Assembly: GCA_043819795.1 (NCBI GenBank)
Contig: JBDREN010000235.1
Coordinates: 1 to 35,235 of the forward strand
Source: Elusimicrobiota bacterium
GTDB taxonomy: Bacteria > Elusimicrobiota > Elusimicrobia > UBA1565
DNA: 35,235 nt
Direction of reading: 5' to 3'
Positions 6,572 through 35,235 of this stretch are shown piece by piece. A program made the position numbers and the translations under genes. A model generated the notes under the pieces. The model worked only from the letters and a program-made list of their open reading frames with translations, made no database searches and was not told the origin of the DNA. Each line of letters begins with the position of its first letter. The first letter of the stretch is position 1.

Positions 6572-8785
6572 TCAGTGCCGGAAGTGGCGCACTCCGGTGA
6601 AGATCATCGCCAGGCCGTGCTCGTCGGCCGCGGCGACGACCTCCGGGTCCCGGATCGAGCCGCCGGGCTGTATGACGGCCGATGCGCCGATGCCCGCGGC
6701 CTGGTCGATGCCGTCGCGGAACGGGAAGAAAGCGTCGGAGGCGAGGACGAGCGGCGTCGGGGCCGGGTTCTCCTCGAGGAACGCGGCGTATTTCTCTCCG
6801 GCGAGCCGCACCGAATCCACGCGCGACATCTGGCCGGCGCCGATACCGACGGTCGCCTCGGGCCCGGCGAGCACGATGGCGTTGGAGCGCACGTGCTTGA
6901 CCGCGCGCCACGCGAACCGGAGGGCCCGCTCCTCATCCGGGGCGGGCTCGCGCTTCGTCACGGTTTTCAGCGCGTCCCCGAATACGACGCTGTCGGGCTC
7001 GGCGGCCAGCACGTCGTCGCCGGAGCCGAGCGAGCGCAGCAGAGCGGCGCCGCTCGAGGGAGGTCGCATGACGATCAGGCGCAGTTTGGGCTTCCTCTTG
7101 AGGACCTCGAGCGCCGCGGTCTCGAAGGCCGGCGCGACGATCACCTCGAGGAAGCATTTGCGTTCGGCGAGAAGTCCGGCGACGGCGGCCGTGAAGGGGC
7201 GGTTGACCGCGAGGATGCCGCCGAAAGCGCTCTTGCTGTCGCAGGACCAGGCCCGCTCGAAGGCTTCCTTCAGGTCTTCGCCGGTGCCCACGCCCGACGG
7301 CGTAACGTGCTTGAAAACGGCGGAGGCCGGCTCCTCGAACTCGCTGACGGCGTCCCAAGAGCCGAAGGCGTCGAGCAGGTTGTTGTAGGAAAGCTCCTTG
7401 CCCTGCAGCTGCTCGAAGGAGGGGCCGGAGCCCCGGACGTAGAGCGCCGCCCGCTGGTGGGGGTTCTCGCCGTAGCGCAGCACCCGGGCCCGCTTCAGGG
7501 AGGCGGTGATGGTGGGAGGGAAGAGTTCCCCGCCGGCTTCCGACGGGCCGTCCGCGTCGTCGGCGCCGCTCCAGGCCCGGGCGATCATCGCGTCGTACCC
7601 GGCCGTGTGGCGGATCGCGGCCAGCGCCAGTTTGCGGCGGGTCTCGAGGTTGAGCTGTCCGGAGGACCCGCCCAGCTCCGCCAAGACGCCGGCGTAATCC
7701 GAAGGCGATACGACGACGGCGACGTCCTCGAAATTCTTCGCCGCGGCCCGGATCAGAGCGACGCCCCCGACGTCGATGTTGTCTAGGGCCTCACGGCTGT
7801 ACGGGGAGCTTGATCGGGCGGCCGTTGTCTCGAAGGGGTAGAGGTTCACCGCGACCAGGTCGATGGGCTCCAGGCCGAAGGTCCGGGCCTCCTCCGACTG
7901 CCGCGGGTCGTTGCGCCGCAGGAGGATGCCGCCGTGGATCTTCGGGTGCAGCGTCTTCACGCGGCCGTCCAGGATCTCGGGGAAGCCGGTCATCGCGTCC
8001 AGCGCGCGCACCTCGACGCCGGCCTCCTTGAGGGCGCGGGCCGTCCCCGAGGTGGACACGATCTCCACGCCGAGCTCCTCCAGGCCTTTCGCGAACTGGA
8101 CGATCCCGTCTTTGTCTGAGACGGAGAGCAGCGCGCGCCGGATGCGGGGGGAGGCGTCGTCTCGGGCGGGGAGGACCCGCGCCCGGCGGCCTTCTATGCG
8201 TATCCGCCCGTCGGCGAAGAGCCTTACGGCTTCCGGGTAGAGCCAGAGCTCCTGTTGGCGCACGCGGGCCGCCAGCGTCGAGGGGGTGTCGTCGGGAAGG
8301 ACGGGGACCGCCGCCTGCAGGAGGATCGGGCCGCGCTCGTACGCCGCGTCGACCAGGTGGATCGTGCAGCCCGATACCTTGACGCCGGCCCGGATGACCT
8401 CCTCGTGCACCTTCATGCCGTACATCCCCTTGCCGCCGAAGGCCGGCAAGAGCGCCGGGTGGATGTTGAGGATCCGGCCGGGGAAGCTTGATAGCATCGG
8501 CTCCAAGAGCTTGCACATGAACCCGGCCACGCATATCAGGTCGGCGCCCGCTCTCCCGCATTCGGCCGCCAGGAACGCGTCGTAGGCCGCGGGCGTGGAG
8601 AAGTCGCTCGAGCGGACGGCTTTCGAAGGGATGCTCGCGCGTTCGGCCCGCCGCAAGGCCCCGGCGTCCTCACGGTCCGACAGGACGAGGGCGATTTGTC
8701 CGGCGATCCGGCGGCTGCCGCAGGCGTCGATGAGGGCCTGCAGGTTCGCCCCCTCTCCGGAGGCGAGGACCGCGATTTTGATCAT
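6572..8785 (-). CDS. purH: PurN-PurH fusion (GAR transformylase + IMP cyclohydrolase/AICAR transformylase)
   Basis: PurN motifs LNIHPALLP and SGCTIHLV in the first ~200 aa, then RALLSVSDK, GRVKTLHP, LRYGENPHQ, SDAFFPF, RHFRH in the same frame. Confidence 0.93.
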   Translation of the reverse strand: MIKIAVLASGEGANLQALIDACGSRRIAGQIALVLSDREDAGALRRAERASIPSKAVRSSDFSTPAAYDAFLAAECGRAGADLICVAGFMCKLLEPMLSSFPGRILNIHPALLPAFGGKGMYGMKVHEEVIRAGVKVSGCTIHLVDAAYERGPILLQAAVPVLPDDTPSTLAARVRQQELWLYPEAVRLFADGRIRIEGRRARVLPARDDASPRIRRALLSVSDKDGIVQFAKGLEELGVEIVSTSGTARALKEAGVEVRALDAMTGFPEILDGRVKTLHPKIHGGILLRRNDPRQSEEARTFGLEPIDLVAVNLYPFETTAARSSSPYSREALDNIDVGGVALIRAAAKNFEDVAVVVSPSDYAGVLAELGGSSGQLNLETRRKLALAAIRHTAGYDAMIARAWSGADDADGPSEAGGELFPPTITASLKRARVLRYGENPHQRAALYVRGSGPSFEQLQGKELSYNNLLDAFGSWDAVSEFEEPASAVFKHVTPSGVGTGEDLKEAFERAWSCDSKSAFGGILAVNRPFTAAVAGLLAERKCFLEVIVAPAFETAALEVLKRKPKLRLIVMRPPSSGAALLRSLGSGDDVLAAEPDSVVFGDALKTVTKREPAPDEERALRFAWRAVKHVRSNAIVLAGPEATVGIGAGQMSRVDSVRLAGEKYAAFLEENPAPTPLVLASDAFFPFRDGIDQAAGIGASAVIQPGGSIRDPEVVAAADEHGLAMIFTGVRHFRH

Positions 8786-8889
8786 CTTACCACCTCGACA
8801 AAGGCGCCATGATTCTGGATGATTTTAGCGTTTTTTCGCCGGAGAACTCCGTCATTTTTTGGGGACGCTGAGCGGCCCCGATCCGAGGT

Positions 8890-9579
8890 TCATGCGGCGT
8901 TGCGCATCTCCGTGAGGATCTCCTGGGCGGCCGCGAGAGGATTCGCCTCTTTCGTGACCGGCCGGCCGACGACCGCGTAGCGGATGCCGAGGCGCGCGGC
9001 CTCGCCCGGCGTGATGTGGCGCTTCTGGTCGTGGGCCGAGTGGCCGGCCGGACGGATGCCGGGGGTGATGAAGCATGTCTCCGGCCCGAGCGCCTTCTTT
9101 AAGGATGGGACCTCCAGGCCGGAGCAGATGACACCGTCGATCTTGTGGGCCAGCCCCATCCGGGCGAGCCGCAATGCCATCGGCCGGAGAGAGGCCTTGG
9201 GATGGATCACGTGCAGATCCGTGGCCGAGAGGCTCGTGAGGACCGACACGCCCCACAGCTTGGGCCGGGGATACACCGAAGCTGCGGCGTGGATCATGTC
9301 GGCGCCGCCGGAGAGGTGCAGGCTCACTGCGTAGACGCGCATCTTCTGGACCTCGTGGACCGCGTGCTCCACCGCCTGCGGTATGTCGTGGAGTTTGAGG
9401 TCGAGGAAAACCTTCGCGCCGTAGCGGTGCACGAGCTCCACGGCTCGCTTTCCGTGCGAGGTGAAGAGGCGCAGCCCCACTTTGAAGTAGGTGACGGTCC
9501 CCTTGAGGGTCTCGAGAAGCTCCTCCTCCTGGGTGATCGTGTCGACGTCGAGGGCGACGATAAGCTCGGTGATGTTCAT
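8890..9579 (-). CDS. pyrF: Orotidine-5'-phosphate decarboxylase
   Basis: IVALD, FKVG, FLDLKLHDIP, TPGIR, DQKR, VVGRP; ATG overlaps the pyrD stop. Confidence 0.93.
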   Translation of the reverse strand: MNITELIVALDVDTITQEEELLETLKGTVTYFKVGLRLFTSHGKRAVELVHRYGAKVFLDLKLHDIPQAVEHAVHEVQKMRVYAVSLHLSGGADMIHAAASVYPRPKLWGVSVLTSLSATDLHVIHPKASLRPMALRLARMGLAHKIDGVICSGLEVPSLKKALGPETCFITPGIRPAGHSAHDQKRHITPGEAARLGIRYAVVGRPVTKEANPLAAAQEILTEMRNAA

Positions 9580-10712
9580 GGACGCGCCTGCGTGGCCGCG
9601 GGGCCGGAGCGCGCGGTCCCGGCCCTCACGCCGGGATCGGAGCGGCCGACGGCGTCGGCGATATCGGAGAGCCCGTGCCGCTTGAGCAGATTCGCGAGGC
9701 CCCGATTGACGGCTCCCGGGAGCGCGGGGCCCTTGTAGATCAGCCCCGTGTAGAGCTGGACCAGGCTCGCCCCGGCGCGGATCTTCTGGTAGGCGTCCTC
9801 CGCGCTGAAGACGCCGCCCGCGCCGATGATCGGCAAGCGGCCGCGGGTGAGGCGGTAAACCTCGCGGATCATCCGCGTGGACAGGTCCCTGATCGGCGCT
9901 CCGCTGAGGCCCCCGCGCAGGCTCTCGAAGCGCTCGGGCAGGCCGAGGCCGGATCGCTGGACGGTCGTGTTCGTGCAGACGACGCCGGCGGCGTTGCTCT
10001 CGATCATGGGCAGCAGGTCCGACAAGGCTTCGGTGTCGAGGTCGGGGGAAAGCTTGACGAATACCGGCTTGCGCTCGCCGTTGCTCTGCTGCAGGGTCGC
10101 TAGGATCCGTTCGAGCCGGAGCTTCCGCCGCAGCGCGCGCAGTCCTCGCGCGTCCGGGGAGCCGAGGTTGACCACGAAGTAGTCCCCGAAGGGATAGAGC
10201 GTGGTGAAGGTCTCGGCGTAGTGCCGGGGCGCCTCCTCGGGAGGGGTATCCGCGTTGAGCCCCAGGTTGATGCCGATGGGCGCGAGGCTCTTGCCGGGGT
10301 CGAGGCGGCCCAGGCGCCGCGCGGCATCCGCGGCGCCCGCGTTGTTCGATCCGAGCCGGTTGATGATCGCTCCCGCCTCGGGCACGCGGAAGAACCGCGG
10401 GCGTGGGTCGCCGGATTGAGGGCGCAGCGTGACGGTGCCCAGCTCGACGAACCCGAAGCCCAGCGCGGGCAGCACTCCCGCGAGCCGGCAGTCCTTGTCG
10501 AATCCGGAGGCCAAGCCGACGGGGTTCGGAAAGCGCAGGCCGGCGACCGTGGTGGCGAGAGCCGGGTCGCGGTGTGAGAAGGCGAGCTCCAGGGCCCGGA
10601 CCGCCAGAGGCAGCCTTCCCGCCCAGTAGAGCGCCGTGGTGGCGCACGCGTGAGCCGTCTCGGGGTCGAGAGAGAAGAGCAGGGGGCGCAACGCCCGTTC
10701 GTAGGCGCTCAA
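9576..10712 (-). CDS. pyrD: Quinone-dependent (class 2) dihydroorotate dehydrogenase homolog
   Basis: DPETAH, NPVGLASGFDK, ELGTVT, TNTT, GGLSG, GASLVQLYTG. Confidence 0.9.
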   Translation of the reverse strand: MSAYERALRPLLFSLDPETAHACATTALYWAGRLPLAVRALELAFSHRDPALATTVAGLRFPNPVGLASGFDKDCRLAGVLPALGFGFVELGTVTLRPQSGDPRPRFFRVPEAGAIINRLGSNNAGAADAARRLGRLDPGKSLAPIGINLGLNADTPPEEAPRHYAETFTTLYPFGDYFVVNLGSPDARGLRALRRKLRLERILATLQQSNGERKPVFVKLSPDLDTEALSDLLPMIESNAAGVVCTNTTVQRSGLGLPERFESLRGGLSGAPIRDLSTRMIREVYRLTRGRLPIIGAGGVFSAEDAYQKIRAGASLVQLYTGLIYKGPALPGAVNRGLANLLKRHGLSDIADAVGRSDPGVRAGTARSGPAATQARP

Positions 10713-10732
10713 TTCTTCTTTAGTTTTCGGGG

Positions 10733-11509
10733 TCAGTTCGAGACATGCCGGACCGCGTTGCGGAACAGCTCCAGGCCGACCCCCTCCGCGCAGAAGGTCT
10801 GCCGCGTCCAGTTCGGGTGATGATACCGCGTGAGGTATCGCTCCGGATGCGGCATGATGCCGAGGCAGTTGCCTTCGGGGTTCGTGATGGCCGCGATGTT
10901 GAAGAGGGATCCGTTCGGGTTCTGGGGATATCCGGCGAACTTACCCTCCTCGTTGACGTACTGCATGAGGATGGACCGTGTCTTTTTGAGCATCTCAAGG
11001 ATCTTGGGGGATTTTACGACGAACTTGCCCTCGCCATGGGCCACCGGCAGCTCGATCATCTCGGGAAGGCCGCAGGTGAACAAGGACTGGCTCTGGAGGT
11101 TGATCCGAAGGCGCACCCAGCGCGCCTCGAACCGGTTCGAGTCATTGAACGAAAGCGAGGCGACCTGGTCCCCCGACGGGGTCTGAGGCAGCAGGCCCGC
11201 CTTGACCAGTACCTGGAAGCCGTTGCAGATGCCGATCACCGGGCGCCCGCTCCGGATGAAGCCCCGCAGGTCCTTGACGTGCCCGCGGATCTCATTGGCC
11301 AGGATGCGGCCCGCGCTGATGTCGTCGCCGTAGGAGAACCCGCCGGGGATGGCCAGGATCGGGTAGTCGAAGAGCCGCACCCTGCCGGAGGTCAGCTCGC
11401 GGATGTGCACGAGCACGGGATTGCCCCCGGCCAGCTTGAACGAGGCGGCGGTTTCGATGTCGCAGGTCGTGCCGGCGGTGCGCAGGATGAGGACTTTCGG
11501 GGAGCTCAT
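10733..11509 (-). CDS. purQ: FGAM synthase glutaminase subunit
   Basis: PGGFSYGD, GICNGFQ, AHGEGK, MPHPER; ATG overlaps the purL stop. Confidence 0.93.
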   Translation of the reverse strand: MSSPKVLILRTAGTTCDIETAASFKLAGGNPVLVHIRELTSGRVRLFDYPILAIPGGFSYGDDISAGRILANEIRGHVKDLRGFIRSGRPVIGICNGFQVLVKAGLLPQTPSGDQVASLSFNDSNRFEARWVRLRINLQSQSLFTCGLPEMIELPVAHGEGKFVVKSPKILEMLKKTRSILMQYVNEEGKFAGYPQNPNGSLFNIAAITNPEGNCLGIMPHPERYLTRYHHPNWTRQTFCAEGVGLELFRNAVRHVSN

Positions 11510-14055
11510 CTTCTCCGGTCCTTGGCGCTCCCGTCCAGCATCCGGGGCAGGGTCCGCCGCCATGACGCCTTGAGCTCTTGGAGGCCTTCCTCGAGCACTT
11601 GGCGTCCGTCCAGCCCGGTGATGCGCAAGACGGGGTTGGCTATCGTGGAGCCGATGCGCGCGAGAGGGACTCCTCTCATGGCTTTCAGGAAGGCCTTCTC
11701 CTTTTCGGCGGCTATCTCGAGCAGGAAACGGCTCGGGCTTTCCGAGAAGAGCAACGTCGCCTCGTCGGAGGCGCCCTTGGCGCGGGGAATCATGTCCAGG
11801 TCGATGTGGACGCTGACCTCCCCCGCGAACGCCATCTCGGCGGCCGCCACCGCCAGGCCGCCCTCGGCCAGGTTGTGGGCGGTCGTGATCAGTCCCTTCT
11901 GCGCGGCCGCGCTCAGCGCCCAGAGGGCCTTTTTTGCGGAGCGCGGCTCCACGGTCGGCACTCGGCCCTGGGGCGTGCCGCTCCATGCTTCGTGGATGGT
12001 CCCCCGCATCTCATCGGCGGTCTCCCCCATGATGTAGACCGGATTGCCGGGGGCCTTGAAATCCATCGTCAGCGCGCGACGGATATCGGGGACGGGCGCC
12101 ACCGCCGAGATCAGCAGCGTCCCCGGAATCGAGCGGCGCGGCCTCTTGCCGTCGGAGTAGACGTTGTGGAGGCTGTCGTTACCCGAGATGAAGGGCGCTT
12201 GGAAGCCGAGCGCCGCGTCCCGGCAGCCTTGGGCCGCGCGGACCAGGGCCCCGAGGGTATGCGGGTCGTCGGGAGCTCCCCAGCAGAAGTTATCGAGCAG
12301 GGCCGCCCTCGTGACGTCGGCGCCGACGCAGGCCAGATTGCTGAGCGCCTCGCCGACGCAGGCCAGGGCCATGGCGTAGGGGTCGAGCTTCCCGTAAGCC
12401 GGGTTGATCCCGTGCGCGACGGCGACGCCCTTGTGGGATTTCGCGTCGCCGGTGACGGCCGCGGGCCAGATGACGCAGGCATCGCCGGGGCCGTCGTGGT
12501 GGAGCCCCTGCAGCGGTTTGATGACCGTGCCGCTCTGGACCTCATGGTCGTACTGGCGGATCACCCATTCCCGGCTGCAGACGTTGAGGTGGGCGAGGGC
12601 CCAATGCAGGGCCTCGGCGCATCTCGCCCGGCCGTCCGAGCGGCTTTTCCTCTTGGCGGAAGCCTTGGGCGGAGGATTCCATACGGCGCGGAGCTCCGGC
12701 CGGGGCAGGCCGTCCCGCAGGAACCCGAGATCGAGGTCCAACAGCGGGCGGCCGCCGAAGCCGACCTCGATGCGTCCCGTGTCGGTGAACTCTCCGAGCA
12801 CGCACAGCTCGACCCCCTCCGACTCCACGACCGCGGCGAGGCTCTTGAGGTTCTTCTTGGGGACGGCCAACACCATGCGCTCCTGGGACTCCGAGACCCA
12901 GACCTCCCAAGGCTCGATGTCGGGCGTCTTCAACAGCGCGTTCTCCAGGCGGACGCGGGCGCCCCCGAGCCGGCCGCCTCGGGACGGCGTCGCGGCGCCC
13001 CGGGCCATCTCCGCGATCGCCACGGAGAAGCCGCCGGCCCCGCAGTCGGTCACCGAGCGGTAAAGCCTTTTGTCGCGCGCCTTGAGCAACGCGTCGAGCA
13101 GGCGCTTCCCCATGGTCGCGTGGCCGATCCTGACGGCCGCGGTGTCGGCCTCTGCCGGGCCGGCGGCCGCGCTCGATGAGACGGCCGCGCAGGGGAACCC
13201 GTCCCGGCCCGTGCGGCCGCCGACGGCGGCGATCAAGTCCCCCGGGACGACGCTTTTTCGGAGCGTCCCGTTGGGCATGATCCCCACGGTTCCGACGAAA
13301 ACGAGTGGGTTGAATCGGTAGCCCTCGTCGAACCATATGGCGCCCGCCGCCGTGGGGATACCGAGGCGGTTCCCGTAATCGCGCACGCCGGCGACGACGT
13401 CCGTCATCATGCGGCGCGGATGCAGGACGCGCTTCGGCAGCGGCCCCGCGTAGTCGGGGGGGCAGAAGCACAGGACATCGGTATTCAGGATGGGCTTGGC
13501 GCCGAGCCCGGTCGCCAGGATGTCGCGCATCACGCTGCCGACGCCGGCTCCGGCTCCCCCGTGCGGCTCGATCGCGCAGGGGCGGTTGTGCGTCTCGACC
13601 TTGTAGGCGAGGGACCACTCCTTGTCGAAGGCGACCACGCCGGCGTTGTCCTTGAGCGCCGAGAGGCACCAGGGCCTTCGCAGCTTCTGCGTGGCGGCCA
13701 TGATGGTGTCGGCGAGCAGGTTCTTATACCGGGTGGTCGATTTTCCGTCCTGGTATCGGATGGGCCCCGTGAAGGTCTTGTGGCGGCAGCGCTCGGACCA
13801 TATCCGGGCGATGGTTTCGGCCTCGGCGCGGGTGGGCTCGCGACGCAGGGAAGTAAAGTGGTCCTGGACGGCTTTGAGCTCGGCCTCGGTGAGGGCCCAC
13901 CCGTAACGCGCGTTCAGGGCCGCCAGATTCTTCCCCGGGGCTCCGATCCAGGGGTTCTCCCAATCCGACCCGTTCGAGCCCGGTTGCGCGCCGGCCGCGG
14001 GGGCCGGAGCGTGCCTTTCGGGTTTTGGCGCGCGCGCCTTTCCCGAAAGACTCAT
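11506..14055 (-). CDS. purL: FGAM synthase subunit PurL homolog with altered active site
   Basis: DNAGVV, KVETHN, RDYGN, TGRDG, DCGAGG, SESQERM, QYDHEV, DNFCWG. Confidence 0.9.
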   Translation of the reverse strand: MSLSGKARAPKPERHAPAPAAGAQPGSNGSDWENPWIGAPGKNLAALNARYGWALTEAELKAVQDHFTSLRREPTRAEAETIARIWSERCRHKTFTGPIRYQDGKSTTRYKNLLADTIMAATQKLRRPWCLSALKDNAGVVAFDKEWSLAYKVETHNRPCAIEPHGGAGAGVGSVMRDILATGLGAKPILNTDVLCFCPPDYAGPLPKRVLHPRRMMTDVVAGVRDYGNRLGIPTAAGAIWFDEGYRFNPLVFVGTVGIMPNGTLRKSVVPGDLIAAVGGRTGRDGFPCAAVSSSAAAGPAEADTAAVRIGHATMGKRLLDALLKARDKRLYRSVTDCGAGGFSVAIAEMARGAATPSRGGRLGGARVRLENALLKTPDIEPWEVWVSESQERMVLAVPKKNLKSLAAVVESEGVELCVLGEFTDTGRIEVGFGGRPLLDLDLGFLRDGLPRPELRAVWNPPPKASAKRKSRSDGRARCAEALHWALAHLNVCSREWVIRQYDHEVQSGTVIKPLQGLHHDGPGDACVIWPAAVTGDAKSHKGVAVAHGINPAYGKLDPYAMALACVGEALSNLACVGADVTRAALLDNFCWGAPDDPHTLGALVRAAQGCRDAALGFQAPFISGNDSLHNVYSDGKRPRRSIPGTLLISAVAPVPDIRRALTMDFKAPGNPVYIMGETADEMRGTIHEAWSGTPQGRVPTVEPRSAKKALWALSAAAQKGLITTAHNLAEGGLAVAAAEMAFAGEVSVHIDLDMIPRAKGASDEATLLFSESPSRFLLEIAAEKEKAFLKAMRGVPLARIGSTIANPVLRITGLDGRQVLEEGLQELKASWRRTLPRMLDGSAKDRRR

Positions 14056-14684
14056 CTCTGGATCACTTTCAACTTATGGATCAGGGGGTTCGAAAGCAGC
14101 TTCTCCAGGATACTTCCCACCTGCGCCTTGTTGACCCGTCCCAGGATGTGGTAGGCCGTCCCGGTCCGCACGCGTGCCGGCTCCGGCAGGCCCATGTCCC
14201 GCACGGCTTTGCGCACGCTCTCGCCGACCGGATCGGCGAGAGCGGGTTTGAGCCACACCTCGAGGCGCCAGTGCGGGCCCATCAGGAACGCCGGCGACGG
14301 CATGGCGCGCTCGACGCGGTACTCCTGAGTCACCGGGTCGGAGAGCAGCTCTCGCGAGAGCTGATGGACCTGGTTGACCGTGAGCTTTCCTACGATCTCG
14401 TAGAGGGCGGATACGCGGACCTCGCGGGCGTTTTGGACGCCTAGCGAAGGGATCTTGCTCAGCAGGGCGGCGCCGGATGCGTCCGTCATGCCGTACTTGG
14501 TGGCCACTTCGACCAAGTGGCGAGGGAGCTCCGGGGCCGGGGCCAGCTTGCGCGGTGGCGGCAATACGGCGGTCAGCTCTCGCGCCTGGGGGAGACCGTC
14601 CTTGACGGCGGAATCGCGCGCTCCGGAAGCCGTCGCGCTTCGCAGGCCGTTCTTTCCGTTCCTTCGGTGGTTGTTGCGCCTCAT
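14052..14684 (-). CDS. purS: Tandem PurS-like domain protein with basic N-terminal extension
   Basis: Two PurS-like units ending LLSDPVTQ and LLSNPLIH; KPALADPVG motif; directly upstream of purL. Confidence 0.75.
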   Translation of the reverse strand: MRRNNHRRNGKNGLRSATASGARDSAVKDGLPQARELTAVLPPPRKLAPAPELPRHLVEVATKYGMTDASGAALLSKIPSLGVQNAREVRVSALYEIVGKLTVNQVHQLSRELLSDPVTQEYRVERAMPSPAFLMGPHWRLEVWLKPALADPVGESVRKAVRDMGLPEPARVRTGTAYHILGRVNKAQVGSILEKLLSNPLIHKLKVIQR

Positions 14685-14686
14685 AT

Positions 14687-15823
14687 TCAGGTCGGTCCGG
14701 AGCTCATGCCGCCTTCGGCCCGCGTCGCGAGGGCGATGATGATCTCGGTCAGTTGCATCTCCTTGATGGTCGAGGCGCCGACGGCGCCCATGCACGTCTT
14801 GAGCGCGCCGACGAGGTTCTGGCTGCCGTCGTCGAGCCGCGGGCCGAAAAGGACCTCTTTGAGCGTCCCTGTGACCCCGACGTGGACTCTGGCCCCGAGG
14901 GGGAGGCCTTCGCGCGTCGTCGCGCCCCAATGGTAGCCCTGGCCGGGCGCCTCCTCGGCGCGGGCGAGGGGCGAGCCGATCATCGCGCCGTCGGCCCCGC
15001 AGGCGATCGCCTTGCAGAGGTCGCCGCCCTTTCCGATGCCGCCGTCGGCGATGACCGGGACGTAGCGTCCGGTCTTCTTGAAGTAGAAATCCCGGGCGGC
15101 CGCGCTGTCGATCGTCGCCGTGGCCTGGGGCACGCCGAGCCCCAGGACTCTGCGGGCGGGGGAGGAGGCGTTCGGCCCGACGCCGACGAGCAGGCCGCTG
15201 ATCCCCGCCTCCATGAGCTCGACGGCGACGTCGAATCCGACGGAGTTGCCGACCACGACGGGCACCTCCATCCGCTCGCAGAACGAAGCGATATCGAAGG
15301 GCTTGTGCCGCGTCGACGGATGCCGCGCGGCCGCCGTCATCGACTGCACCACGAAAATGTCGCAGCCGGCCTCCTGGGCGATCGGGCCATACTCGTCGGC
15401 GTTCTCCGGGGTCGTGCTGACGGCGCAGGGGACGTTCGTCTTGACGATCTCCGAGACGCGTCGGGCGATGAGGCGCTCTTTCGTCGGCTCCCGGTAGATC
15501 TCCCGGACGAGGCGGGCGGCGTCCCGAGGCCCGGCCGCCGCGATCCGGGCCACGACCTCCCGCGGCTTCTCGTAGCGCGTATTGATGCCGTCGAGGTTCA
15601 GCACCCCCAGTCCCCCGAGCTTGCCCATCTCGATGGCGAACCGGGTGTCCACGACGCCGTCCACCGCCGAGGCGAGCACCGGGATGTCGAGGAGGATGTC
15701 GCCGATCTTCAGGCTGGTGTCCACGCTGTCGGGCTCGACGCCCGCTCCGCTCGGGACGAGGGCGATCTCGTCGAACCCGTAGCAGCGGCGCACCTCTCGG
15801 TCATGTCCGATGAAAAAAGGCAT
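14687..15823 (-). CDS. GuaB3-family IMP dehydrogenase-related protein lacking the catalytic Cys
   Basis: YGFDEIALVP, DGVVD, VLGLGVPQATA, YVPVIADGG, CGADGAMIGSPLA, QNLVGALK. Confidence 0.88.
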   Translation of the reverse strand: MPFFIGHDREVRRCYGFDEIALVPSGAGVEPDSVDTSLKIGDILLDIPVLASAVDGVVDTRFAIEMGKLGGLGVLNLDGINTRYEKPREVVARIAAAGPRDAARLVREIYREPTKERLIARRVSEIVKTNVPCAVSTTPENADEYGPIAQEAGCDIFVVQSMTAAARHPSTRHKPFDIASFCERMEVPVVVGNSVGFDVAVELMEAGISGLLVGVGPNASSPARRVLGLGVPQATATIDSAAARDFYFKKTGRYVPVIADGGIGKGGDLCKAIACGADGAMIGSPLARAEEAPGQGYHWGATTREGLPLGARVHVGVTGTLKEVLFGPRLDDGSQNLVGALKTCMGAVGASTIKEMQLTEIIIALATRAEGGMSSGPT

Positions 15824-15840: not shown

Positions 15841-16078
15841 ACTGATGGCAGCCTGAATAATGTCCTGCTTTGGAGGCGCAGCCTTGCGGCGGATGCAAGG
15901 CGCGACGAGGGAGCATAGCCAAAGCTATGTGACCGAGGAGCAACGCCGCAGCCGCCCGGGGATGCGCCTCCCCGGAGGGGCTGGGCGCTTTTGAGCTGCG
16001 CCTGCGTCGCTCGTCGCTCCTTGTCGCGCTCCAAAATCACCTCGGCCAAAGTAGGACATTATTCAGGTTGCCATCAGT
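15841..16078. mobile_element. 238-bp MITE-like element with 33-bp terminal inverted repeats
   Basis: ACTGATGGCAGCCTGAATAATGTCCTGCTTTGG (15841-15873) matches the reverse complement of 16046-16078 with 2 mismatches; no credible coding content. Confidence 0.75.
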
Positions 16079-16083
16079 AGGTC

Positions 16084-16117
16084 AAAAAAAAGACCGCAGC
16101 GCGGCCATGGGGTCTTT
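16084..16117 (-). terminator. Intrinsic terminator-like hairpin at the end of the guaB leader
   Basis: Minus strand AAAGACC...GGTC followed by a run of 8 T. Confidence 0.55.
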
Positions 16118-16264
16118 GGGCCACCTACGGTGTTTCGGGTCCGGAATGGGCATTGCGCTGAGGGCGTCGGCCCTGGTTCGGCAGCCTGTCCCTCCTGCCG
16201 GGGCCCCCGCTTTGGAGGGAACCGGCCGGGGGCTCCGATATTTCGGCGTTCCCGTCGGTAAAAA

Positions 16265-19580: not shown

Positions 19581-20015
19581 ATGCCTAAGCGGCGGACCAT
19601 GAACGGAATCCGCGGCCAGTCCGGCTATACGTTGGTCGAGACGATGGTCGCGATCCTGCTCGTCTCGTTCGTGGTGACGTCCGTCTTCTCGGTGGTGCTC
19701 ACGGCCAGGATGGGGGCCCACAAGACGGGCGTGCGCGGGCAGGCCCTGTACTTCGTCCGCCAATCCATGGAGCGGCTCAAGGCTTACGTCTCAGCCGACA
19801 CGAGCGCGCCGGGCCCCACGCCGAACTGGACGTATCCGGGCGATGCCTGCAACTGCTACGCGCTGGCGCAGGGAGTGCACGACATCACGAGCACTCTCCC
19901 GGTGAGCTTCCGCGGCGCTCCCAGGAACGGGACTTTGGAGTACAACGTGTCGAACCAAGCATGCGGGGGGCAGATGTGCCAGCGCGTGGAATTCCAGATA
20001 AAATGGGACGAATGA
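19581..20015 (+). CDS. Type IV minor pilin/pseudopilin (PilV-like)
   Basis: Class III signal G/YTLVE followed by a hydrophobic helix; start may be 19599. Confidence 0.85.
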   Translation: MPKRRTMNGIRGQSGYTLVETMVAILLVSFVVTSVFSVVLTARMGAHKTGVRGQALYFVRQSMERLKAYVSADTSAPGPTPNWTYPGDACNCYALAQGVHDITSTLPVSFRGAPRNGTLEYNVSNQACGGQMCQRVEFQIKWDE

Positions 20016-20662
20016 CGGGGCGGTTCGAGCGGGGGGATGCGGGGTTCAGCCTGGCCGAGCTGGTCATCGCGTCGCTGCTCTTCAGCATGGTGATCGCCGG
20101 CCTGGCCGCCATATACGGCACGGTTTTCCAGCAGAGCGGCCGCATCCTCGGCAACAGCCGGATCAAGAACCAGGCGGCGTACGCGTTGCGGGCCATGCAG
20201 AACCAGGTCACCGTGGCCACCCACCTCGAGGATCCGCCGAGGGGCGTCCCGGGGAGCCAGTTGAGCGGATGCCGGAACGCCAAGCCCGACGGGACCCGCA
20301 TCGTCCCGTCTCCGGAGAAGCACGGCAGCTTCGGTTTCTGCCTGCGCAACACGGCCATCAGGCTCTGCCAGGTTCCGGGCAATTCGCCGCCTTGCCTGTT
20401 CTACTATTATTGGCCGAACATCTGTCCACCGCCGCAGGTGACGCCCGCCAACTGCGGCAACCCTGTCAGCGGGGTGAGCCCCGAGGTGCTCGCCTCCGAG
20501 GTGGAGGGGGGGGCCGGGGGCGGGAATGTTTTCGAACGGTCTCAGGAGATCACCGACGTGCGCATCGCGTTCGCCGTGACCAAGGCGAAGACGCGCAGCC
20601 ACCCGAAGCTGTCCTACGCGGTGGATACGACGCTGCACGCCCATTTCGGGGTGTCGCCGTGA
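20012..20662 (+). CDS. Type IV minor pilin/pseudopilin (PilW-like)
   Basis: G/FSLAE plus hydrophobic helix; ATGA overlap with the previous gene; Cys-rich head. Confidence 0.85.
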   Translation: MTGRFERGDAGFSLAELVIASLLFSMVIAGLAAIYGTVFQQSGRILGNSRIKNQAAYALRAMQNQVTVATHLEDPPRGVPGSQLSGCRNAKPDGTRIVPSPEKHGSFGFCLRNTAIRLCQVPGNSPPCLFYYYWPNICPPPQVTPANCGNPVSGVSPEVLASEVEGGAGGGNVFERSQEITDVRIAFAVTKAKTRSHPKLSYAVDTTLHAHFGVSP

Positions 20663-20979
20663 GCTTCCGGGGAGGGGGCTGCGAGAGGGGGCTGGCGCTC
20701 GTGCAGGTGCTCGTCATGTCCGTGCTGCTGGTCATCCTGGCCACCGGGGTCCTCAAGGTGATCTTCGCGGACCACGTCCTCGTGGCGCGGGTCAAGAACA
20801 GCGACGTGCACAAGTACTACGTGGAGGCGTGCATGGCGCGCAAGAATTCGGAGTGGGACGGGCAGCCCTGCAGGCCTCCGAACTCTCCCTGCGTCTTTTC
20901 CTCGCCGGGGGGCGGATCCGTCAGCGTGAGTGCGGTCTGCAGCGGGAACACGGCGGTTTTCGAGGTCAATTGGCAGTGA
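20659..20979 (+). CDS. PilX/GspK-like minor pilin
   Basis: ERG/LALVQVLV with no Glu5, as in PilX/GspK; GTGA overlap. Confidence 0.7.
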   Translation: MSFRGGGCERGLALVQVLVMSVLLVILATGVLKVIFADHVLVARVKNSDVHKYYVEACMARKNSEWDGQPCRPPNSPCVFSSPGGGSVSVSAVCSGNTAVFEVNWQ

Positions 20980-20990
20980 GAGGGGGCGCC

Positions 20991-21659
20991 ATGGAAAACG
21001 CGGATAGAAGGATAACCGTCCTGATCCGGTTCAGGAAGCGGCAGGCCGTCGCGGCGCTGGTGGCGGCGCTCGTCTGTCTTCTGCCCGTGAAGCTGGCCAC
21101 CCAGCAGGCGAGACAGCAGATGTCCCTGACGACCTACTATCCGGCTCCCTTCGGGGTGTACCAGCAGCTCCAGGTCGAGACGGAGACGTATCTGGCCTAT
21201 ATTTCAGGCCGGGTCGGCATCGGCACGCAGACCCCCGCCTCGTCGTTCAAGCTGGAAGTGAACGGGGGAACCCTCATCCAGGGCGACGCCGACGTGACGG
21301 GGAGGGCCGCCGTCGGGCAGAACCTCACGGCGGCCAACGGCGCCGTGACGTTGGGCAACGACGGCGGCTTTCATTTGAAGGCTTCTGGAAATCTCGTGTT
21401 GGGCGGCCAGACGGGGCGGGTTCATATCGGGACCAGCGTGAGCCAGTACCTGGGCCGGATGTGCAAGGTGGCCCCTTACTACAACATGGTCCTGTTCAAT
21501 CCTTGCCCGAACGGCGGGGTGGGTTGGGTGCCGCTCGCGTTCGCGAAGAAGGTCGGGCCGAACAAGTTCGACATCCTCTCGGATAAGGCGCGGAGGACCC
21601 CGGATAGATACCCGCCGTTGAGCGGCCACATGCTGTGCTGCAAGATGGAGCGCCCTTGA
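20991..21659 (+). CDS. TYYPxP/GIGT/MLCCK paralog 1 (putative pilus-associated adhesin)
   Basis: RBS GAGGGGG; hydrophobic N-segment, TTYYPAPFG, GRVGIGT, terminal GHMLCCK. Confidence 0.8.
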   Translation: MENADRRITVLIRFRKRQAVAALVAALVCLLPVKLATQQARQQMSLTTYYPAPFGVYQQLQVETETYLAYISGRVGIGTQTPASSFKLEVNGGTLIQGDADVTGRAAVGQNLTAANGAVTLGNDGGFHLKASGNLVLGGQTGRVHIGTSVSQYLGRMCKVAPYYNMVLFNPCPNGGVGWVPLAFAKKVGPNKFDILSDKARRTPDRYPPLSGHMLCCKMERP

Positions 21660-21676
21660 GCGCGGAAGAGGAGCCG

Positions 21677-22327
21677 ATGAGCCGGATGAACGGAGCCGTG
21701 GACGGCGAAGCGAGGATGCTGACGGTGCGCCTTGAGCTGCGAAGAGGGCAGATCGTCGCGGCCCTCGCGCTGCTCCTGCTCTGCGCGCTCCCCATGGACC
21801 TGGCCACGGAGAAGCTGGCCCTGGCCACGTACTATCCGTCTCCGTACGGGGTGTACGAGAGGATGCGGGCCACGGACAACGCGCGGCTCGCCTACACGTC
21901 GGGGCGGGTCGGTATCGGCACGACGGCCCCCAACGCGGAGCTGGACGTGGTGGGGCACGCCCTGATCCAGGGGACCGCCACCGTCTCGGGCAACGCCGCC
22001 ATCGAGAAGAACCTCACGGCGTGGGGCGGGAGGGTGGAGTTCGGCAGCAGCGCCGAAGGCTACAGCCTGAAGGCCGCCAACGGCGATCTGATCATGGGGG
22101 GCGCCGGGGGCAAGACGGGCGAGGTATTGATCGGCAACTCCCCCGACTATTTCCTGGGCCGGATGTGCCGGTTCGTGGCGTATGATGACGTCATCGTCTG
22201 GACGCCCTGCCCCAACAACGGGGTGGGCTGGACGCCGGTCAGCTGGGGAAGCGTCTCGGACCGTCTCGCGGGCACGGCCGGCCGGGTGACCGGCAGGATG
22301 CTTTGCTGCAAGATGCAGCAGTACTGA
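21677..22327 (+). CDS. TYYPxP/GIGT/MLCCK paralog 2
   Basis: RBS GAGGAG; TYYPSPYG, GRVGIGT, GRMLCCK. Confidence 0.8.
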   Translation: MSRMNGAVDGEARMLTVRLELRRGQIVAALALLLLCALPMDLATEKLALATYYPSPYGVYERMRATDNARLAYTSGRVGIGTTAPNAELDVVGHALIQGTATVSGNAAIEKNLTAWGGRVEFGSSAEGYSLKAANGDLIMGGAGGKTGEVLIGNSPDYFLGRMCRFVAYDDVIVWTPCPNNGVGWTPVSWGSVSDRLAGTAGRVTGRMLCCKMQQY

Positions 22328-22338
22328 GCGAAGAGGGC

Positions 22339-22962
22339 ATGGAAAGCGAAGGACGGATGTTGACGGTCCGCATCGAGCTGGGAAGGCGCCAGATCGCTTC
22401 GGCGCTGGCGCTGCTTCTGCTCTGCCTGCTGCCCGCGGAGCTGACGACCGAGGAGATGACGCGCACGACCTACTATCCGTCGCCCTTCGGGGTGTACGAG
22501 AAGATGCGCTCCACCGACAACACCCGGCTCGCCTACACGTCGGGGCGGGTCGGCGTCGGCACGACGGAACCGGCCGCCGAGCTGGACGTCCGGGGTCACT
22601 CGCTCATCCAGGGAAACGCCGATATTTCGGGGAAGGCGGATGTCGCCCTCAACGTCGCCGCCGGGAACGGGGACGTGGAGGTCGGCCAAAGCGCCGAGGG
22701 CTTCCACATCAAGGCCAACCGCGGGGATCTGGTGCTGGGTGGCGCGGGGGGAAAGACGGGCGAGGTCCATATCGGCAACAGCTCCAGCTATTTTCTGGGC
22801 CAGATGTGCCGGTACGTCGACTACAACCAAGGCGTGACGTATTGTCCGAACGGAGGAAGAGGCTGGTCGGTGGTCAGCTGGGGAGGCGTCTCGGACCGCT
22901 TCAGCGGCACGGCCGGCGCGTGGATGGGCAGGATGTTGTGCTGCAAGATGGAGCCGTACTGA
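22339..22962 (+). CDS. TYYPxP/GIGT/MLCCK paralog 3
   Basis: RBS GAGGG; TYYPSPFG, GRVGVGT, GRMLCCK. Confidence 0.8.
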   Translation: MESEGRMLTVRIELGRRQIASALALLLLCLLPAELTTEEMTRTTYYPSPFGVYEKMRSTDNTRLAYTSGRVGVGTTEPAAELDVRGHSLIQGNADISGKADVALNVAAGNGDVEVGQSAEGFHIKANRGDLVLGGAGGKTGEVHIGNSSSYFLGQMCRYVDYNQGVTYCPNGGRGWSVVSWGGVSDRFSGTAGAWMGRMLCCKMEPY

Positions 22963-22988
22963 GCGGCGGGAAGCGAGGGGGAAGAGTC

Positions 22989-23663
22989 ATGGAAGCCAGA
23001 GAACGGACGATCACGGTGCAAGTCGAGATCGGAAAGCGCGGGTTCGGCGCGGCGCTGGTCCTGCTTCTGCTCTGTCTGCAGCCGGTGGAGCTGGCCACCG
23101 AGCAGCTTACCCTGACGACCTACTATCCGGCCCCCTTCGGGAACTATGTCAGGCTGCGGACGACGCGGGACTCCTACCTGGCCTACTCGGGAGGCAGCGT
23201 CGGCATCCGCACGGTCACGCCGTCGTCCGGCTACAAGTTGGACGTCAACGGAAAGGCCGTCATCCAGGGGAACGTCGAGGTCCGGCAGATGGCCAGCGTC
23301 GCCAACAACGTCACCGCGGCGGGCCGCTCGGTGACGCTGGGCGATGTCGGAGGGTTCCACCTGAGCTCCACCGGGAATTTGGTGCTGGGCAGCCAGACGG
23401 GCGCGGTGCGGATCGGGGCGGGCGCCAACGAGGATAATTACTACCTGGGCGACATGTGCCAGTATGAAGCCTACGACAGCGGCAAGCGCGACTGCTCCTT
23501 CACGGGCTGGTCGCCGGTCGCTTTCACCGACGGCGGCAGGAAGATGCATGACAACATCAGCCTGCAGGGCAGCCTCGGGCCGATCCTCGACGATCCCGGA
23601 CCCGGAAACCAGGTGGTGGTCCCGGGGAACCAGATGCTGTGCTGCAAGCTGGAGTCGTTTTGA
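22989..23663 (+). CDS. TYYPxP/GIGT/MLCCK paralog 4
   Basis: TYYPAPFG, GSVGIRT, QMLCCK. Confidence 0.8.
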   Translation: MEARERTITVQVEIGKRGFGAALVLLLLCLQPVELATEQLTLTTYYPAPFGNYVRLRTTRDSYLAYSGGSVGIRTVTPSSGYKLDVNGKAVIQGNVEVRQMASVANNVTAAGRSVTLGDVGGFHLSSTGNLVLGSQTGAVRIGAGANEDNYYLGDMCQYEAYDSGKRDCSFTGWSPVAFTDGGRKMHDNISLQGSLGPILDDPGPGNQVVVPGNQMLCCKLESF

Positions 23664-30224: not shown

Positions 30225-34897
<4,673 letters not shown>

Positions 34898-34908
34898 AAC
34901 CCCTCCCC

Positions 34909-35235
34909 TTAACGCACCACCGCGAACTTGCCCGACTTGCGGATGTCGGCGTGTCCCGACTTCTCGGCCGTCATCGTGTAGAGGTACACCCCGCTGGGGA
35001 TGCGCCCGTCCCACGTGTACTCATAGGCGTACTTGGGCCCGCTCCCGTCGTCGATCACGGGCGGCGCGTCCTCCAGCGTCGCCTGGTGCGCCTGCTGGCC
35101 CGCCATGTTGTAGATCCGGAGCGTCACCTTATCCGCTATCCCCACCGCCGCGTGCAGGGTGGGCCGGGCTCCGCCCACCGCCGGGTTCGGGAACACGTAC
35201 ATGTCGCGCAGCGTGAAGCTCGGGTCCGCCGCACC
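34909..35235 (-). CDS. C-terminal end of a protein with T9SS type A-like / FlgD-Ig-like sorting domain (partial)
   Basis: YVFPNP...LRIYNMAGQ...WDG...SGVYLY...GKFAVVR; the frame is open to the window edge. Confidence 0.8.
   Translation of the reverse strand, partial: GAADPSFTLRDMYVFPNPAVGGARPTLHAAVGIADKVTLRIYNMAGQQAHQATLEDAPPVIDDGSGPKYAYEYTWDGRIPSGVYLYTMTAEKSGHADIRKSGKFAVVR

Follow-up and report, generated by a model that had tools for sequence, protein, structure and literature searches.

Why would a bacterium that likely lives on salvaged bases keep an uninterrupted set of nucleotide-biosynthesis genes, four of which encode proteins with eroded active sites? This question is raised by contig JBDREN010000235.1 (C235) of the Elusimicrobiota assembly GCA_043819795.1 (G000; 4.99 Mb, 90.3% complete, the sole member of its genus in our genome set), which was analysed here over 35,235 nucleotides (the window). 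Our analysis indicates that three of its genes, purS, purL and purQ, which correspond to formylglycinamidine ribonucleotide (FGAM) synthase, are probably kept as a non-enzymatic complex that would bind a partner via an order-specific surface, in the operon remnant of a probable auxotroph. An earlier note, made from the sequence letters, had described seven consecutive frames without stop or frameshift, and these were confirmed on the minus strand at 6572-15823. The tight junctions that it had claimed were also found, namely three 4-bp overlaps and a gap of 2 bp; the other two gaps are 20 and 104 bp. The genes are as follows:

14687-15823, minus strand: guaB3, inosine monophosphate (IMP) dehydrogenase homolog (TIGR01304, 405.6 bits, cut-off 342.1)
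14052-14684, minus strand: purS, which encodes a conserved tandem PurS; part of the retained trio
11506-14055, minus strand: purL, synthetase half eroded and C-terminal half kept; member of the retained trio
10733-11509, minus strand: purQ, above the TIGR01737 cut-off; member of the retained trio
9576-10712, minus strand: pyrD (class 2), catalytic Ser185 kept, orotate-site changes
8890-9579, minus strand: pyrF, single private change (T69A)
6572-8785, minus strand: purN-purH fusion, PurN eroded, PurH in the normal range and above the TIGR00355 cut-off

An operon remnant in a probable auxotroph

The gene order of relatives (20 loci) is guaB3-guaA-purC-purS-purL-purQ-purF-purD, then purE (11 loci), pyrC and pyrD-pyrF-pyrE-purM-purN/purH, the downstream part being seen only where a locus extends far enough (8 loci reach purM); a lipoprotein-like gene follows pyrC in some of these loci. 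Judged by this order, what is left here once belonged to a pur/pyr operon of 15-16 genes. Eight to nine genes have been deleted inside it, which the earlier note had overlooked, and the deletions fall at three junctions:

14685-14686 (2 bases): guaA and purC are located here in relatives
10713-10732 (20 bases): relatives hold purF, purD, (purE), pyrC and the lipoprotein-like gene here
8786-8889 (104 bases): relatives hold pyrE and purM here; contains a ribosome-binding site for purN

A contig of run X1 (10687-10937) reads across the second junction and shows no difference. As all three deletions lie inside a single contig, with independent confirmation of one junction, genome incompleteness does not explain the losses. 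Elsewhere in the 90%-complete genome guaA, purC, purF, purD, purE, pyrC and purM were not found, with weak paralog matches at most; nor were an ortholog of pyrE (a 40% paralog beside purB was the only match), pyrB (best match under the cut-off) or carB. The genome does contain salvage and related genes, namely hpt, apt, upp, udk, a UraA-like permease gene, purA, purB, pyrG and a full his operon. From this gene content, auxotrophy for both purines and pyrimidines is most likely, and the organism probably lives on salvaged bases. The earlier note had offered auxotrophy as the main alternative to its own inference; it was right about the auxotrophy, which is the setting of selection on dead proteins and not a rival to it. 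We also observed that the PyrE paralog (C131:26756-27361) lies directly upstream of purB, has an unusual phosphoribosyl pyrophosphate-binding loop and is conserved in relatives. The his operon (C153:10424-17336) is complete and 45-60% identical to that of Escherichia coli; hisD occurs in 4 of 31 order genomes, of which this is one, and the operon was perhaps acquired.

Sequencing or assembly error as the source of the changes was rejected, because contigs of independent runs agree and a 95%-identical sister contig shares the PurL changes. The agreeing contigs, from two other public runs, are pieces of 150-300 bases that cover parts of the stretch, and they match at 99-100% in guaB3, purL, purN/purH and the purQ-pyrD junction. 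The paralog check proposed in the earlier note found no canonical second copy of guaB3, purS, purL, purQ, pyrD or pyrF in the assembly, where the sole second copy of any cluster gene is a distant PurH on C69. The best PurL matches among 8000 scored candidates are 69-71% identical, the named PurL homologs come from Elusimicrobiota, and GuaB3 relatives from a metagenome scan are at most 70% identical. A contig scan with PurD, which had 1 Elusimicrobia locus among the 80 listed, was not used.

Erosion and retention of the trio

Damage was scored at the columns where all other aligned relatives (19-34 per gene) agree, with the purL of genome G060 excluded because of its stop. Four proteins exceed every relative, with 8-20% of otherwise invariant positions changed: GuaB3 (34/174; each of 34 relatives at most 5), PurL (21/226; each of 28 relatives at most 6), PyrD (5/65) and PurN (4/50), the relatives of the last two having at most 2. 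The others are in the normal range, namely PurS (0/15), PurQ (2/88, relatives at most 3), PyrF (1/49, at most 5) and PurH (4/184, at most 6); the control PurB has 2/132 (at most 4). Three of the motifs reported earlier need correction. The PurH motif called altered is identical in an intact relative and is not among the PurH deviations, and in the PyrF motif T69A is private whereas the Gln before it is the family consensus. In the second PurL motif H158 is changed but H156 (Salmonella H296) is kept. The earlier note had also credited PurQ, PurH and PyrF with their core catalytic residues; the PurQ triad C95/H221/E223 is present, and 180 of 184 PurH and 48 of 49 PyrF invariant columns are unchanged.

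The changes are concentrated in active sites, as had been claimed: 45 of 160 conserved columns are changed inside active-site windows versus 35 of 476 outside, although these windows were drawn from known motifs after the changes had been seen and are biased. A test free of this bias gave the same picture, with changes at 17 of the 45 PurL columns released in at least two of five other dead PurLs versus 8 of 220 other columns (p = 2e-9).

PurL carries Q84R, H89R, H158R, T170A, G174S and Q309R, together with H288P, G289C, T291A and F292V in the C-loop. With an assumed 8-residue tag offset, the changes map onto Salmonella H216, H298, T310, Q471 and the C-loop. H89R removes the first catalytic His, a residue that is His in 112 of 116 other homologs and whose Salmonella counterpart H216 we take to be the catalytic His. 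The Mg ligand D337 is unchanged, as is H156. According to PMC7124931, Salmonella H296 and T310 form the ammonia end gate. Across 119 PurL homologs the median number of changed columns is 2, versus 19 in this PurL, and the erosion is found mainly in the N-terminal synthetase half (20/158 columns, versus 5/107 in the C-half). The profile score of 508.8, taken for this PurL only, falls under the TIGR01736 cut-off of 525.75, which is weak evidence by itself. The pathway context of an active FGAM synthase (PurF, PurD, PurM) was not found in the 90%-complete genome and is deleted at the locus. An ammonia-dependent enzyme is a poor fit, because the losses concern precisely PurL and the enzymes that feed it.

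The same state recurs across the order. purD was not found in 13 of 101 order genomes, and among well-assembled genomes PurL was found in 47 of the 47 searched, versus 53 of 59 for purD. Four genomes, G029 and G036 of genus g11 and G038 and G048 of genus g21, have an open purS-purL-purQ with no other operon gene alongside, and the catalytic residues of their PurL and PurQ are gone. No match to purD, guaB3, pyrD or purN-purH was found in these four, and none to purF in G029, G036 and G038, the three covered by that search. G096 (g21, 62% complete) has PurQ and the PurL C-half. Five further eroded PurLs were found among the protein matches; eroded PurLs have 18-36 changes in the N-terminal synthetase half versus 3-7 in the C-half. 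The g21 PurLs have 113 of 158 N-half columns changed, and older lineages lose the entire synthetase site. None of the six other eroded PurQs in the alignment retains the catalytic Cys. On a quick tree, from which the g21 PurLs were left out as long branches, the dead PurL state needs four changes, forced by the starred branches. As read from this tree, PurL has died on four or more separate occasions within the order, each time through the same residues. The gene neighbours of the trio differ among lineages. Between G038 and G048, where dS is 0.26-0.31, the ratio of nonsynonymous to synonymous substitution rates (dN/dS) is 0.21 for purS, 0.16 for purL and 0.037 for purQ, with 0.014 in the C-terminal part of purQ.

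Some candidates were dropped. G100, G062, G077 and G040 had been considered as pathway losses, but their remaining genes are intact and the losses look like gaps, and P0121 had been considered a dead PurL, but it keeps H89 and its changes are mostly in the C-half. We also noted an intermediate stage in L420 (G060:C99), where purF is deleted, the trio is eroded and purD is eroding (5/91).

What the dead versions keep is specific to the order. In the C-terminal half of PurQ, 77 of 135 columns are conserved in 31 active order members versus 29 of 135 in 19 Elusimicrobiota outside the order, and 93 of 135 are identical in six dead versions. Order-specific columns survive in dead lineages at 52 of 67 positions in PurQ, 17 of 21 in PurS and 30 of 36 in PurL residues 651-849, and the PurS of this genome keeps 20 of 21. 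By contrast, the universal PurQ columns lost in dead lineages form the glutaminase site, position 15 included; here Asn15 of the N-terminal loop, invariant in 32 relatives, is changed (N15T), and this position is among those released in dead relatives. The pair PurQ R224 / PurL D503 is kept in all dead versions aligned, which fits continued assembly of the complex; its counterpart is the Salmonella R1263-D657 bridge described in PMC7124931. A PurQ model (mean value of the predicted local distance difference test, pLDDT, 85) confirms the fold only, with residues 230-240 unresolved. Many kept PurQ positions fall in three parts of the model, namely the loop at 135-140, the helix at 167-175 and residues 231-241, and they may face outward. 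Conservation across the order suggests that the order-specific positions on PurQ, PurS and the C-terminal third of PurL likely form a binding surface.

The mutation pattern bears on whether these proteins simply decay. Of the 86 single-step changes found where a column is 90% conserved, 40 are A:T to G:C transitions. The argument from the lack of stops, which the earlier note had used, is weakened by this, because these dominant changes cannot create stops; even so, about 5 stops were expected and none was seen (P = 0.007). Eight in-frame indels and no frameshift were found. Fold selection was tested within the A:T to G:C class at conserved columns of guaB3, purL, pyrD and purN. Conservative changes were made at 34 of 299 opportunities versus 2 of 190 for radical ones (p = 4e-6), with no Leu to Pro (0/71), Trp to Arg (0/11) or Cys to Arg (0/16). 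The counts were 12/117 versus 3/142 in PurL alone (p = 0.007) and 17/108 versus 2/89 in GuaB3 alone (p = 0.001). The third base had been altered again in 7 of 26 informative codons, about half-way to equilibrium, which indicates that the amino-acid changes are not recent.

A sister contig of 594 bases from run X2, 95% identical, shares the PurL changes H89R, F134L, A148S, H158R, T170A, G174S, G181A and F195L. In PurL residues ~87-265, a hand count of 24 listed differences gave 12 synonymous and 12 nonsynonymous ones (dN/dS 0.32-0.46, P 0.01-0.04). Ten of the 12 nonsynonymous changes are conservative or lead to residues of active relatives, and two are in the eroded site (91, 165). dN/dS against family relatives does not separate the readings, as dS is 0.6-1.6 and near saturation. 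The fold-selection test, the active-site concentration and the sister dN/dS together support the earlier suggestion of selection for folded proteins without their chemistry.

Explanations weighed with the neighbouring genes

Retention of PurS-PurL-PurQ as a binding complex would have come about as follows. To judge from the order-specific columns that active members conserve and dead ones keep, a second, binding job probably arose in the order's ancestor, at a time when catalysis was still intact. After the loss of purF and purD, only the catalytic residues would have been freed from selection; the trio would still assemble into a complex shaped like FGAM synthase, and the second job would need no catalysis. 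Expression of the operon would still be needed for the trio and for PurH, which would handle the 5-aminoimidazole-4-carboxamide ribonucleotide (AICAR) that histidine synthesis releases. In guaB3, pyrD and purN, polarity would remove stops and frameshifts, and misfolding variants would be lost because they are costly. Drift in these three genes may therefore be confined to active sites until deletion, the state seen in other lineages. The window would then capture an early phase of the conversion, in which the passengers have not yet gone.

Several observations weigh against this explanation. The case for a second job is built on sequence evidence, and the fold selection seen in GuaB3 alone shows that a fold signal by itself proves no function. 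The low dN/dS of a fully dead trio stems from another genus, and the sister comparison comes from one contig of depth 3.1 with 24 of 29 differences listed. The terminal branches of PurL, PyrD and PurN are no longer than those of relatives and fit either reading; a long terminal branch was found only for GuaB3. The eroded trio of G060 has a TGA stop inside purL, so either the trio is not always protected or this is a base error. No PurQ match was found in G020 and G062 (88-89% complete) or in G028 and G084 (75-77%), which may reflect gaps or total loss; ligA too is missing from G020 and G062, where assembly gaps are possible. Finally, in f4, another family of this class, PurQ was found in only 7 of 95 genomes, which means that the second job is not a general one.

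It is unlikely that the trio and the other upstream genes are all passengers of an operon expressed for PurH (and PyrF), protected by polarity and misfolding cost until deletion. Such a state would account for GuaB3, PyrD, PurN and the eroding PurD of G060, and it agrees with the dominant changes that cannot make stops, with the presence of Rho and with the stop in G060 purL. However, the trio of G029, G036, G038 and G048 stands without purH or any other operon gene, with dN/dS of 0.04-0.21 in the last two, and PurQ and PurS are near-invariant here while their neighbours erode. The scaffold or regulatory role proposed in the earlier note is supported for PurS-PurL-PurQ, by repeated retention under purifying selection in other lineages. 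GuaB3, PyrD and PurN are probably passengers, because they were not found in the other dead-trio genomes; guaB3 abuts purS and purN is fused to purH.

Among the genes around the trio, PyrD has F122S, S184G and N187D in the orotate site, and besides these only A69S was flagged in its flavin-site windows. PurN has T13A, D150E and H180L; its catalytic set is presumably Asn-His-Asp, with D150 as the Asp, and the catalytic Asn and His are not among the changed residues. The single private change of PyrF suggests that it is probably still active or only lately released. Histidine synthesis releases AICAR, and its recycling by PurH is an established pathway; as the his operon and FolD are present in the genome, PurH likely recycles AICAR here. 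The second PurH (C69:14180-15733) lacks the catalytic residues of both domains and lies after ligA in 19 of the 19 order loci holding it. Its dN/dS is 0.10 in G038/G048, and apparent orthologs occur across the class, often as the sole PurH-like gene. A co-loss of this paralog with the trio in G020 and G062 was considered and dropped, as the neighbouring ligA was missing from all 5 genomes tested.

It seems improbable that every leftover protein, GuaB3, PyrD and PurN included, is a pseudoenzyme under selection within a single assembly that senses nucleotides or acts as a scaffold. The fold selection in GuaB3 and the third-position clock (7/26), which suggests old changes, speak for it, as does the ancient dead PurH paralog conserved in the class; PMC9790621 describes a mycobacterial GuaB3 that lacks the catalytic Cys and is yet required for growth. 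Against it, the four other genomes with a dead trio gave no match to GuaB3, PyrD or PurN-PurH, and the damage to GuaB3 reaches beyond its active site. Besides C221S (the catalytic Cys), T222P, G218N, R309L and a deletion of Met300, the catalytic loop, the NAD site, the flap and the C-terminus are eroded, with 21 of 49 active-site-window columns changed, and 20 of 158 conserved columns outside are changed as well. The conserved last residues are missing at the deletion junction, and two single codons have been lost. Its erosion exceeds that of PurL (p = 0.005). The catalytic loop, the IMP-binding Met and the flap belong to the active site of IMP dehydrogenase. In an alignment to 8P4Q/8P37, the same Cys to Ser change distinguishes 8P37 from 8P4Q. 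GuaB3 may also have been actively silenced, because without GuaA it would drain IMP into dead-end xanthosine monophosphate. Even so, GuaB3 might have a function of its own, given that the mycobacterial protein is required despite lacking the Cys.

We consider it quite improbable that the trio here is an uncoupled glutaminase (or deamidase), with PurQ active and PurL and PurS as an activating scaffold. C95, H221 and E223 are present, PurQ has only two changes at its 88 invariant columns, and basal glutaminase activity is reported for bacterial large PurL in PMC13013826. However, the six other eroded PurQs have all lost the Cys, the probability that a released codon would stay unchanged here was 62%, and N15T falls within the released set. 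New chemistry, as in the non-canonical nucleotide pathway that the earlier note had suggested, is very unlikely: PyrD keeps Ser185 with no flavin-site change flagged except A69S, and H89R, Q84R and H158R recur in two to four lineages, but these recurrent changes are of the commonest mutation type, the same PurL positions elsewhere become Pro, Tyr or Ser or are deleted, the enzymes that would feed such a pathway are gone, nothing of the synthetase site survives in older lineages, and the four dead-trio genomes yielded no GuaB3, PyrD or PurN-PurH.

Other features, known systems and significance

Upstream of guaB3 two further features were found:

15846-16075: element of 230 bp, bounded by long terminal inverted repeats and inserted after the operon leader, ahead of guaB3
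16082-16153, minus strand: leader with a terminator-like hairpin and T run, common to most family relatives

The genome has two other long copies of the 230-bp element (~82%) and 26 short matches, and the element together with the leader T run creates a sigma-70-like site at 16085-16058. The leader, which also lies upstream of guaB3 in L031-L047, consists of a short common motif, a long hairpin and a T run in most genomes of families f1 and f3; no Rfam family matched it in 8 loci, and it is possibly an attenuator or riboswitch. A second, N-terminally shorter Rho homolog (C30:34854-35699) is present in 5 of 5 genomes tested. Elsewhere the window contains a repeated stretch of ~110 bases near its left end (423-894), a series of small secreted proteins, pilin-like and paralogous, whose C-termini are rich in Cys (19581-23663), and a 1371-aa repeat-rich secreted protein near its right end (30899-35014).

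The trio has the same three genes, folds and order as the FGAM synthase PurL-PurQ-PurS (Thermus thermophilus 3VIU, Thermotoga maritima 2HS0/3D54; large PurL of Salmonella, 1T3T). The PurQ triad, PurL H156, D337 and residues 388-392, and the R224/D503 bridge are present here, whereas H89 (H216), T170 (T310), Q309 (Q471) and the start of the C-loop are not; no supply of formylglycinamide ribonucleotide and no FGAM consumer were found in the genome, and the conserved positions are order-specific. The gammaherpesvirus vGAT/ORF75 pseudoenzymes (PMC7605207) likewise have the FGAM-synthase fold without catalysis and are used via protein contacts. They are, however, viral, single-chain and host-acquired, whereas here the cell's only copy has been converted in place, repeatedly, and this genome still has the glutaminase triad. 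The GuaB3 of Corynebacterium glutamicum (2QR6) and the mycobacterial one, the latter per PMC9790621, also lack the catalytic Cys and the IMP/NAD residues, but the mycobacterial protein stands beside an active GuaB2 and is required for growth, whereas the GuaB3 here was formerly the sole IMP dehydrogenase, GuaA is gone, and related auxotrophs have no match. Pseudoenzymes of the FGAM-synthase fold are already known from herpesviruses; in the literature searched, mostly open-access main texts, no report was found of a dead bacterial PurS-PurL-PurQ kept in an auxotroph.

More broadly, and quite tentatively, FGAM synthase may have a conserved second, non-catalytic function (as an adaptor, sensor or structural assembly) that is exposed by the loss of purine synthesis, uses the order-specific surface and may involve the dead PurH paralog. 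Annotation of purL, purQ or guaB in such genomes overstates metabolism, and operon passengers can resemble designed pseudoenzymes. Core enzymes are assumed to decay after pathway loss; here the sole FGAM synthase repeatedly loses catalysis and would be kept under strong selection. If so, the retained trio would expose a moonlighting role in prokaryotes and supply a short list of positions to mutate, with a bearing on purinosome-like assemblies and on the possible origin of the herpesviral vGAT pseudoenzymes.

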